NCBI GenBank assembly: GCA_044225505.1
Contig: JBGAIN010000040.1
Location: forward strand, 1 to 52,159
DNA from: Limisphaerales bacterium
Lineage (GTDB): Bacteria; Verrucomicrobiota; Verrucomicrobiia; Limisphaerales; SIBE01
Length of the DNA stretch: 52,159 nucleotides
Direction of reading: 5' to 3'
In this document: positions 12,253-16,258 of the stretch, piece by piece
How the letters are laid out: every line of letters begins with the position of its first letter
Numbering within the stretch: position 1 is the first letter of the stretch
Translations under genes and position numbers: made by a program
Notes under the pieces: generated by a model
The model's database searches: none
What the model saw: only the letters and a program-made list of their open reading frames with translations
What the model was told of the DNA's origin: nothing

Positions 12253-13650
12253 TTACCCCTCCAGGACGAGGCGACGTACGAGTTCATAAACCTCCGTGGA
12301 CGCGAGAGGCGAATCGGATAGCAAGCCGGAATCAGCAACGACGATCGGCCAATCGTCCGGGTTCCTGGGAATGCAACCGTGCGAGCCCTTGACCAGAGTC
12401 GGGTCCAGCGGAATTAAGTTCATTAGCATCCGGAATCCGAGCTTCTTTTGCAGGAGTTTGAAAGCGATTTTGAGTTTTGCCCAGCGCTGCCGCGGGTCGA
12501 GAAACAATTCGACCGGGTCATATCCGGGTTTACGGTGGATATCCACGGTTCGGGCAAAATCGGGCGCAGCCTGGTCGTCGAACCAATAGTAGTAGGTAAA
12601 CCAAGCGTTCTCTTGCGCGACTACGATAAGATCGCCGGCGCGATTATGGTCGAGGCCGATGGCTCCGCGTTCCGCTTTCAAGAAGACGTGGCCGACTCCG
12701 GGCGTATCGCGCAGAAGCTTATACGCCTTTTTTTCAAGAGAGGCGTCATTGAGGTAGACATGCGCGATCTGATGATCGGCGACAGCAAAGGCCCTGCTTG
12801 CGCCGCAATCGAGCAGTTCCAACCCGAGCTCTTGCTTGATTTCGATCCAACCGTTCTCACGGAACAGTCGGTTCAAATGAACCGGAGTATCAACCGCCGT
12901 GAGGCCGTACTCGGAGAGGAGGGCAACTTGCACTTGGTGTTTTCGATAGAACTGCAGCAGTTCCCCAACCAATTGATCGATCTCCCGTAGATCATCCTCT
13001 GCTTTTGGATGGTGCGGGCCCCAGCGCTGGAAGTTGTAATCGAGGTGCGGCAGATAAACCAGCGATAGTGTAGGGGAGTATTTCTGTTCAATCCATCTCG
13101 CGGCATCAGCAATCCATTGGGAAGCCGCCGGCCGACTGTAGCGGCCAGAAGTTGTTCCGGCCGCAGGCCCCCAAAACGCGGGAAAAGGGAATGCTCCAAG
13201 ATCCTCTGTAATGGCCGGGCGCAGCGAAAAAGGCCAGGTGTAAATATCGAAAATCTTTCGTCCGTCCGCCGGATACAAGGGTCGAGGTGTGATGCTAAAG
13301 TCGACCCCAGAATACATATTGTACCACCAAAAGAGTTTGGCACAGGTGAACTCAGGACGGAGCGCCTTCAAGTCGTGCCAGATTTTGGGGCGCTGGATCA
13401 AATGATTTGATTGCTTCCAAAACTGCACTTCGGCCAGTGATCGGTCGTACCAACCGTTGCCTACAATGCCGTGCTCGGTCGGCCGACATCCAGTTAAGTA
13501 GTTTGCCTGGGCTGTACAGGTGACCGCCGGCAACGCCGGAGAGATCGTCGCCAGTTTGTTCTGTTGTGCAAAGCTGGAGATGTGGGGCGTGGCTGACCCA
13601 AGAACCGAGCGAGAGAGCCCGACGACATTGAGGATAGCAGTCCGCTTCAT
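12253..13650 (-). CDS. eboF: Alkaline phosphatase / nucleotide pyrophosphatase family protein, EboF-like
   Basis: LNVVGL, PAVTC (nucleophile Thr), HGIVGNGWY, VYLPHLDY, LSEYG, VDIHRKPGYDPVELF, VKGSHG, as in ebo-cluster EboF. Confidence 0.82.
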   Translation of the reverse strand: MKRTAILNVVGLSRSVLGSATPHISSFAQQNKLATISPALPAVTCTAQANYLTGCRPTEHGIVGNGWYDRSLAEVQFWKQSNHLIQRPKIWHDLKALRPEFTCAKLFWWYNMYSGVDFSITPRPLYPADGRKIFDIYTWPFSLRPAITEDLGAFPFPAFWGPAAGTTSGRYSRPAASQWIADAARWIEQKYSPTLSLVYLPHLDYNFQRWGPHHPKAEDDLREIDQLVGELLQFYRKHQVQVALLSEYGLTAVDTPVHLNRLFRENGWIEIKQELGLELLDCGASRAFAVADHQIAHVYLNDASLEKKAYKLLRDTPGVGHVFLKAERGAIGLDHNRAGDLIVVAQENAWFTYYYWFDDQAAPDFARTVDIHRKPGYDPVELFLDPRQRWAKLKIAFKLLQKKLGFRMLMNLIPLDPTLVKGSHGCIPRNPDDWPIVVADSGLLSDSPLASTEVYELVRRLVLEG

Positions 13651-13773
13651 GACTCGCGGGGACTGACAGGGTTTGTTCGCCTGGCACAGGACGCTCTGGT
13701 CGTCCCGGATTCCGGTGATGGTAGCGGCCAGGCCGCATCCGGGGAATGCTCTTCGCCAACCTGCCGAGCGGAC

Positions 13774-14973
13774 CTATTGGGGATTGCCCAAGTTCCCAGC
13801 CGATGGGCGGAGGCGATTGGCATGGCGTTCCTGCAACTCATGAATAGCTGCGATGACCAGTTTCAGTTCGATCGCATGGACCTCATGGCCTCGACCGATA
13901 CCCTGAAGCAGAGTGACGGTCAAATCGCCGCCCAGGTGCTCGCGAAAATCCTCGAGACCTTCCAATACCTTCAACTGGCTCGCCTTATCGACGTGCAGTA
14001 GTTCATTGGTAAATAACTCAAATCCGAGCACTTCGATTAAGGTAAGAATCCGCTCCGCGGAGTCCCCGTCGAGTAACCCGGTCAGTTTCGAATAAGTCAC
14101 GTCGATTGCAATCCCGATGGCGACGGCCTCACCGTGACGCAGCTTAAACTCGGAGAGTTGCTCCAGTTTGTGAGCCGCCCAATGCCCGAAATCCAACGGT
14201 CGCGCGGAGCCAAACTCAAAGGGATCGCCCGCTGTGGCAATGTGGTTGATGTGCAGTTCGGCGCATCGATAGATGAGCGGTTCCACGGCCGCGGGATCAA
14301 ACGTCCGCAGGCGTTCGGCATCCTGCTCGATTCTTTCGAAAAAAGCCCGGTCTCGAATCAGTGCGACTTTAAGCGCTTCGATATATCCGGCGCGCTTATC
14401 CCGTTCCGAAAGCGACGCGAGCAAACCGAAGTCATTGATCACGGCAAATGGCGGTGCAAACGTGCCAATGAAGTTTTTTTTGCCGAAAGCATTGATGCCG
14501 TTTTTGACGCCGACTCCCGAATCGTCCTGGCTCAGGGTGGTCGTGGGAAACCGGATATGGCGTAGGCCGCGATGGGCAGTTGCAGCCGCCAGACCGACCA
14601 TGTCGAGAAGTGCCCCTCCGCCAATCGCGATCACATACGAATGTCGGTCGAGGTGGTAGCGATCGATCTGAGATTGAATCTCCGAGACGTGAAAATAGGA
14701 ATTTTTCACGCGCTCTCCGCCCTCAATGACAATCGGCGGGCAAACCAATTGCAGCTCTGGCGAACTCTTAAAGTAAGAGTCGATGTCCCGTTCCAAAGCG
14801 GGCCGAGCTTGAGCTAGAGTTTCGTCGAGAATCACTAAGGCTCGCTGAGGGCGCCGGGCTTCCCCGTTGGTGAGCACGGTCCGAAGGAGCGAATTGTCTG
14901 GATGGAACGTATCCGTGGTGAAGTGCACCTGGTGCCGATAACGCACTTCAATCTGGCGTTCGATCACACGCAT
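13774..14973 (-). CDS. eboD: 3-dehydroquinate synthase-like sugar-phosphate cyclase, EboD clade
   Basis: GGGALLD, AATAHRG, PTT, DSGVGVKNGIN, DPFEFGSARPLDFGHWAAHKLE, LRHGEAV, FREHLGG are EboD-type rather than E. coli AroB-type signatures. Confidence 0.8.
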   Translation of the reverse strand: MRVIERQIEVRYRHQVHFTTDTFHPDNSLLRTVLTNGEARRPQRALVILDETLAQARPALERDIDSYFKSSPELQLVCPPIVIEGGERVKNSYFHVSEIQSQIDRYHLDRHSYVIAIGGGALLDMVGLAAATAHRGLRHIRFPTTTLSQDDSGVGVKNGINAFGKKNFIGTFAPPFAVINDFGLLASLSERDKRAGYIEALKVALIRDRAFFERIEQDAERLRTFDPAAVEPLIYRCAELHINHIATAGDPFEFGSARPLDFGHWAAHKLEQLSEFKLRHGEAVAIGIAIDVTYSKLTGLLDGDSAERILTLIEVLGFELFTNELLHVDKASQLKVLEGLEDFREHLGGDLTVTLLQGIGRGHEVHAIELKLVIAAIHELQERHANRLRPSAGNLGNPQ

Positions 14974-16050: not shown

Positions 16051-16086
16051 AATTTTGTCGCCGGGGCATCAACGCTGGGCTCAATG

Positions 16087-16117
16087 AAAAAGCCGCAGGT
16101 GATGGCGACCTGCGGCT
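16087..16117 (-). terminator. Intrinsic terminator of the aroF attenuator
   Basis: Minus strand AGCCGCAGGT-CGCCATC-ACCTGCGGCT perfect 10 bp stem running into a T5 tract, 36 nt upstream of the aroF ATG. Confidence 0.88.
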
Positions 16118-16135
16118 CGGGTTAAAGTTTGCGTT

Positions 16136-16222
16136 TTAGAGCAGCCCGATGCGCAGGTTCGGAGAGCTAAAGTAGTATGCCCAACCGAACCCACTGCTAA
16201 ATCGATGGCTGCCGTTAGTCAT
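16136..16222 (-). CDS. Aromatic amino acid leader peptide MTNGSHRFSSGFGWAYYFSSPNLRIGLL (28 aa)
   Basis: Hand-translated ATG(16222)..TAA(16136); F, F, W, Y, Y, F clustered in codons 8-18; directly upstream of the terminator and aroF; too short for the ORF track. Confidence 0.85.
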   Translation of the reverse strand: MTNGSHRFSSGFGWAYYFSSPNLRIGLL

Positions 16223-16230
16223 CAAGCGGC

Positions 16231-16258
16231 ACGATAGCAGACTGCTTCGGGCCGTCAA
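16231..16258 (-). promoter_or_regulatory. Putative sigma70 promoter of the aroF leader
   Basis: Minus strand TTGACG-N16-TATCGT with TG extension (TGC-TATCGT); 8 nt from -10 to the leader ATG. Confidence 0.6.

Follow-up and report, generated by a model that had tools for sequence, protein, structure and literature searches.

The region upstream of the DAHP synthase gene aroF in a Limisphaerales bacterium (GenBank GCA_044225505.1, contig JBGAIN010000040.1) is best explained as a ribosome-mediated transcription attenuator, which would set the expression of DAHP synthase by the supply of charged aromatic tRNAs (probability about 0.88, judged from sequence comparison and modelling). The window, i.e. 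the whole stretch of DNA that was analysed, comprises 52,159 nucleotides, and positions count from its first letter. A preliminary description of this DNA had proposed an attenuation logic of the trpL/pheL type, and this proposal was supported by conserved codons, the spacing between promoter and start codon, the terminator, the antiterminator and modelled stalling.

In the proposed mechanism, transcription would start at the leader start codon or a few nucleotides before it, as the conserved spacing suggests, and the ribosome would load without a Shine-Dalgarno sequence. According to the model, an RNA free of ribosomes would fold within the ORF, segment 2 (the 5' strand of the antiterminator) would be hidden, and the terminator would form. 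An ample supply of Phe-, Tyr- and Trp-tRNA would let the ribosome run through segment 2, and the terminator would form about 17 nt past the stop codon. If one aromatic tRNA were scarce, a ribosome stalled at codons 8-18 would break the ORF hairpin and free segment 2, which would capture the 5' arm of the terminator, so that RNA polymerase would read into aroF. Stalling on a scarce cognate tRNA is established for trpL/pheL-type systems and would be expected to apply here.

Layout of the locus

The predicted features are collected in Table 1. The preliminary description had given a promoter TTGACG-N16-TATCGT with an ORF 8 nt downstream, which was matched base for base, and a 28-aa ORF with clustered Phe, Trp and Tyr codons, which was found again with all six aromatic residues in place. 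No other promoter-like site was detected between 15500 and 17000 (mean in shuffled sequence 0.5). The 10-bp terminator with U tract described earlier corresponds to 10 Watson-Crick pairs, to which an outer G-U pair is added here, followed by a T-rich tail. The words named for the 2:3 pairing are likewise present, and segment 2 pairs with 16121-16108 at 12 of 14 positions. A 42-aa version of the leader ORF with a TTG start was set aside, as it overlaps the promoter.

Table 1 Predicted features of the aroF leader region
Feature	Position	Strand	Description
Candidate sigma70-type promoter	16231..16258	-	-35 TTGACG (16258-16253), 16-nt spacer, extended -10 TG-TATCGT (ending at 16231); promoter scan
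Leader peptide ORF, 28 aa	16136..16222	-	leaderless or nearly so; 8 nt after the -10 box, without Shine-Dalgarno sequence
Control codons F8, F12, W14, Y16, Y17, F18	16169..16201	-	modelled switch window
Whole-ORF hairpin (anti-antiterminator, 1:2)	16141..16213	-	outer helix GCAGCC/GGCTGC conserved, inner helices vary
Segment 2 (antiterminator 5' strand inside the ORF)	16145..16158	-	made of 16158-16152 and 16149-16145
Intrinsic terminator (3:4)	16083..16118	-	11-bp G+C-rich stem 16118-16090, 7-nt loop, U-rich tail
Proposed regulated gene, type I-beta DAHP synthase (aroF), 337 aa	15037..16050	-	

The fold of the 147-nt leader RNA gave z = -5.5 against shuffled sequences. Taken singly, the locus was modestly beyond chance, with P of about 0.02 for at least six aromatic residues in 27 codons and 1.8 terminator-like sites expected by chance in the region; chance was ruled out because the leader is conserved in relatives, the locus alone being insufficient.

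The product of aroF scored over the cut-off for PRK08673 and TIGR01361, contained the domains PF18152 and PF00793 and thus an N-terminal ferredoxin-like regulatory domain, and had 1rzm as its best PDB match (E 2.7e-103). In the type I-beta enzyme of Thermotoga maritima, a ferredoxin-like domain of this kind binds Tyr, according to the excerpted text of PMC5493349. Downstream of aroF (12253-14973, minus strand), a 3-dehydroquinate synthase-like gene (PRK06203) and a gene for a protein with a phosphodiesterase/alkaline-phosphatase fold were located. This pair recalls EboD/EboF of ebo clusters. An aroF-aroB operon was considered as the conserved target and rejected, an aroB-like neighbour being present near aroF in 1 of 69 loci; the genes downstream of aroF were not conserved among the relatives. 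At one locus (L045), a second DAHP-synthase-like ORF, either a tandem duplicate or a fragment, starts 9 nt after the first aroF.

Collection of leaders from relatives

The closest named relatives were Limisphaerales, Pedosphaera and other Verrucomicrobiota assemblies. DAHP synthase loci were collected (175, with some genomes represented twice) and screened with a rule based on geometry only, namely TTGAC 160-250 nt before aroF, followed 34-41 nt later by ATG or GTG; TTGAC was thereby the anchor for choosing leaders. The rule was fitted by 116 loci, while 55 were without the pattern and 4 were too short; two further loci (L054, L087) carried clear leaders narrowly outside the geometry. After those at least 90% identical had been dropped, 96 non-redundant leaders were left, of which 13 came from three families outside the order and the rest from within it; the related genomes are non-independent samples. 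Before de-duplication, a leader was present in 100 of the 115 loci with an enzyme at least 75% identical and enough flanking sequence. A TAnnnT box followed TTGAC in 84 of the 96 leaders, and a clean terminator followed the ORF in 92.

Among the 84 leaders with TAnnnT, 73 had the start codon 6-9 nt past this -10 box. The median Shine-Dalgarno pairing energy was zero before the leader ORFs and also before aroF, so that this measure does not discriminate. In the host genome, the bin 5-10 nt downstream of such promoters held 21 ATGs of long ORFs, while the other 6-nt bins held 6.25 on average (225 sites). From these spacings, leaderless initiation of the leader ORF is likely. Some Verrucomicrobia are poor in Shine-Dalgarno sites, according to excerpts of PMC10783764.

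Selection on the aromatic codons

The preliminary description had suggested aligning the regions upstream of aroF for conserved Phe, Trp and Tyr codons, and such conservation was found: every one of the 96 leaders held an ORF of 20-32 aa, in which Phe, Trp and Tyr made up 24.8% of the residues; the corresponding shares were 6.9% and 8.4% for the two alternative frames, and 9.4% for shuffled sequence. Frame 0 was the most aromatic one in 89 of 96 leaders. Relative to the long-ORF proteome of the host, Phe was enriched 3.1-fold, Trp 2.9-fold and Tyr 2.8-fold; Cys was likewise enriched 3-fold, mostly outside the control stretch. The median number of aromatic codons per leader was 7, with all three kinds present in 86 of the 96 peptides. 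Codons -23 to -10 from the stop (1330 codons in all leaders) comprised 280 Phe, 151 Tyr, 101 Trp (TGG), 26 Cys (TGY) and 7 Leu of the TTR type, and this excess of TGG over TGY and TTR points to selection on the meaning of the codons and not on U-richness. By this comparison of relatives, the in-frame aromatic codons, together with the terminator and segment 2, were shown to be under selection.

Going by the codon composition, all three amino acids may be sensed. With a fixed switch window, 74 of 96 leaders had all three residues within it; with a window set per leader, 55 of 92 did. A sensor that responds mainly to Phe, or to Phe and Tyr, with the Trp codons tolerated or acting as a weak input, is a less probable alternative that still deserves attention. 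Phe is present in all 96 leaders and is the commonest residue in the switch window, 17 of 96 leaders lack Trp there, and in the C. glutamicum aroR-aroF system (Neshat et al. 2014, as presented in the excerpted text of PMC11802643), induction follows Phe limitation only, the Tyr codons giving no response to Tyr. Against this stand the roughly fourfold excess of TGG over TGY in the window, the enrichment of Trp to the same degree as Phe and Tyr, and the leaders of one family (f51), in which two Trp codons are interleaved in the aromatic cluster.

Read more boldly, the attenuator would be a three-input OR gate, in which a leaderless mini-ORF reads the charging of Phe-, Tyr- and Trp-tRNA at the single attenuation point that the genome was found to have for aromatic biosynthesis, with U-ending Phe and Tyr codons selected for slow decoding and sharper sensing, and with the leaders as the Verrucomicrobiota branch of a class of tri-aromatic DAHP synthase attenuators that spans several phyla and has yet to be catalogued; we hold this extended reading tentatively, at somewhat below even odds. 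For Phe, leaders used TTT 257 times and TTC 61 times (81% TTT), whereas the aroF genes used them 164 and 639 times (20%). The preference for TTT in the leaders may help to keep a loop unpaired, slow down decoding, or do both.

An arrest peptide of the TnaC type, in which the nascent peptide and a free metabolite would stall the ribosome, is very unlikely. It could account for the rather uniform length (mostly 26-29 aa) and for a fairly conserved C-terminal Leu-Arg, the underlying YTGCG motif being read as Leu-Arg in 73 of 80 leaders. The peptide is otherwise highly variable, however, with Phe, Trp and Tyr interchanging freely; the Leu-Arg codons coincide with the antiterminator strand, and in the other 7 of 80 leaders the motif is kept in another frame. 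Serine codons are mostly AGC (182 of 297), as a constraint on the RNA would give, and a stall near the stop codon would, in the model, favour termination.

Terminator, antiterminator and modelled stalling

For the attenuator, ribosome stalling was modelled by masking the RNA up to 9 nt past the A-site codon and comparing the best folds with and without the terminator. At the locus in the window, the antiterminated fold was 15 kcal/mol worse without a ribosome, 2-6 kcal/mol worse with the ribosome at codons 8-18, and 15-17 kcal/mol worse from codon 20 to the stop; mask offsets of 6 and 12 nt moved the profile by one codon. In 92 leaders, the antiterminator had a median deficit of 14 kcal/mol without a ribosome; this fell to about 6 with the ribosome at codons -21 to -11 and was 15-16 between codon -7 and the stop. 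The modelled dip was limited to about codons -23 to -10 and closed at the end of the aromatic codons. The switch depth was 10.75 kcal/mol, compared with 3.0 for codon-shuffled ORFs; it exceeded the shuffled value in 92 of 92 leaders, with p <= 0.05 in 76. Folding of both states, which had been suggested as a check, thus gave a shift of the balance toward the antiterminator when the modelled ribosome stalled on the aromatic codons. In the model, the terminator was the more stable fold at equilibrium even with a stalled ribosome (by 2 to 6 kcal/mol), and read-through must therefore be kinetic.

An alignment was restricted to closely identical leaders (67 of the 92). In these, 74% of cells of the antiterminator were paired, versus 28-45% for slid partners. 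Its core showed more conservation than covariation: double changes numbered 3 at one pair of the core and 9 at the end pair. Where the terminator arm had changed, the leader's own segment 2 paired with it better than the canonical one in 17 of 19 cases; in the reverse swap, the own arm was better than canonical arms in only 6 of 19. A cruder first duplex test reached p <= 0.05 for no more than 34 of 92 leaders. The terminator caller first used chose wrong outer stems at some loci and was replaced. RNAalifold on the aligned leaders recovered the terminator alone and no antiterminator.

The whole-ORF hairpin had a median z of -3.0 against codon shuffles, and the core of segment 2 was paired within it in 76 of 80 leaders. 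Its outer helix was paired in 77-79% of cells, and an inner helix (16191-16185 with 16162-16156) in 54%, versus 39-47% for slid partners. This inner helix is the 1:2 pairing GGTTCGG/CCGAACC named in the preliminary description; its words are present at this locus, but as an exact helix it was found in 1 of 96 leaders only. The conserved 1:2 property is a stable hairpin of the whole ORF, in which individual pairs vary. Of the conserved and covarying stems anticipated there, conservation was confirmed for terminator, antiterminator and ORF hairpin, while covariation in the core was modest. The features of a classical attenuator are thereby present, i.e. cognate ORF, terminator, exclusive antiterminator and 1:2 helix, the last two by modelling and conservation.

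A constitutive, leaky terminator or a small RNA without a switch would be the least probable explanation. It would agree with the model, in which the terminator is the more stable fold throughout. The RNA data weigh neither for nor against it: in four RNA runs that were compared, all of them assembled contigs of depth 2-7, out of ten matching part of the stretch, parts of aroF were covered and 16102-16258 was in none, one contig extending to 16101, about 16 nt beyond the predicted termination point, and not reaching the leader ORF. Such a terminator would leave unexplained why aromatic codons occur in frame, why they are placed as they are with respect to segment 2, and why a candidate cognate leader stands before ilvB in the same genome.

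Genome context

A rule combining promoter, small ORF and terminator gave 2 matches among 1052 promoter-like sites in the whole host genome. Besides the aroF leader, this was a 24-aa Val/Leu-rich ORF with a terminator directly before ilvB, the gene for the large subunit of acetolactate synthase (G000:C102:39246-39415; in locus L207 at about 147-316). Its sequence makes it a second leaderless attenuator candidate and a cognate internal control. The genes trpE and pheA begin 16 and 6 nt after upstream ORFs and therefore have no room for leaders of their own. In the 95%-complete host genome, neither TRAP (mtrB, PF02081; the search was positive in a B. subtilis control) nor TrpR was found, nor were DAHP synthases of types II and I-alpha. 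A three-way sensor at the entry of the pathway would make sense where leaders of trpE and pheA, TRAP and TrpR are absent.

Control of the RNA by a protein or ligand (TRAP, T-box or riboswitch), the ORF being incidental, is highly improbable. Across the order, the terminator core hardly varies (11 invariant columns in 67 sequences), which could also reflect a binding site; near invariance is, however, expected of a strand shared by two helices, as is remarked for attenuators in the accessible part of PMC1262725. No TRAP and no Rfam match was found, and the strong in-frame codon selection speaks against this explanation.

Comparison with known systems

At the gathering threshold, Rfam, including its Trp and Phe leaders and T-box, gave no relevant match either for this region of the window or for 8 loci of relatives, and NCBIfam gave nothing relevant for three leader peptides. 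The statement of the preliminary description that it knew of no such case in Verrucomicrobia agreed with a keyword search of the literature, in which neither a Verrucomicrobia leader of this kind nor a leader with Phe, Tyr and Trp was found; the main comparative-genomics surveys, which lay outside the scope of that search, and supplements may hold earlier predictions. No such leader is mentioned in the accessible portions of PMC4833913 and PMC1262725. The excerpt of PMC2659441, a Shewanella survey, contains predicted RNA elements before aroF and aroH.

The attenuation mechanism is classical, and a DAHP synthase attenuator has already been published for C. glutamicum. There, a short aromatic-codon ORF (aroR) stands before aroF, and induction works through ribosome stalling; aroR contains Phe-Tyr-Phe and no Trp in that run (excerpts of PMC11802643 and of Mentz et al. 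2013, PMC4046766). Unlike aroR, going by this published Phe-Tyr-Phe description, the present leaders carry 7 aromatic codons in the median and mostly combine the three kinds, and the enzyme here is of type I-beta with a ferredoxin-like domain. With trpL and pheL of E. coli, which are attenuators (excerpt of PMC11802643), the leader shares a cognate-codon ORF, exclusive 1:2, 2:3 and 3:4 helices and an intrinsic terminator. It differs from them in that the transcript looks leaderless, has no Rfam match, and is proposed to control the entry to the common pathway and not a terminal branch. Segment 2 of trpL sits after the stop codon, unlike here, where it lies before the stop codon, so that the ribosome would unwind it directly. 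In thrL and ilvL, which are multivalent attenuators, one leader reads several amino acids of a branched pathway; the proposed reading of several amino acids here is alike, whereas the amino acid family and the sequence are different. The ilvBNC leader of C. glutamicum is also of the multivalent type (excerpt of PMC4046766).

The leader offers a concrete point at which the synthesis of aromatic amino acids would be controlled in a lineage that is mostly uncultured and whose gene regulation is little studied, and the roughly 100 natural variants of one attenuator are material for Rfam and for a small-ORF family. It suggests that leaderless translation is used for regulation in Verrucomicrobiota. 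Should read-through respond to each of Trp, Tyr and Phe, the leader would be a small natural sensor with three inputs, of use for aromatic biosensors. The general understanding of attenuation is unchanged by it.

Distribution and variants

Of 26 loci from other classes of the phylum, 10 carried a small ORF rich in aromatic residues; only two of these (L180, L187) had, as judged by eye, the layout of a leader with a terminator, the others resembling the ends of genes or noise from A+T-rich sequence. A quick tree of 119 enzymes required 11 changes in leader presence, at least 5 of them forced by strong branches. This distribution would fit repeated loss. Among genomes of the order and the class, many gave no match to this DAHP synthase at stricter thresholds (85 of 151 in the class sample); these genomes probably use another enzyme type.

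Several leaders deviated from the common form. At L070, a shortened leader about 120 nt upstream of aroF has kept promoter, start codon and terminator and is missing the aromatic stretch, for which constitutive termination or another regulation is predicted. Leader ORFs without a clean terminator were seen at L012, L026, L114 and L117; L012 encodes a good aromatic peptide, while L026 and L114 have kept the hairpin and lack the adjacent U tract. The output of these four is possibly different, e.g. through Rho-dependent or translational control. At L038, L050, L120, L121 and L161, a leader is missing and TTGAC is placed 34-39 nt ahead of the aroF start codon, an arrangement that would suit a leaderless aroF; a promoter directly before aroF as the general state of leader-less loci was unsupported (7 of 55, versus 8 of 96 in the control). 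Finally, the records L032, L070, L071, L079, L086 and L097 are titled Akkermansia, Bifidobacterium or Klebsiella, and these titles look like mislabels, the enzymes being 79-84% identical to the aroF product of the window and placed inside the Limisphaerales-like clade.
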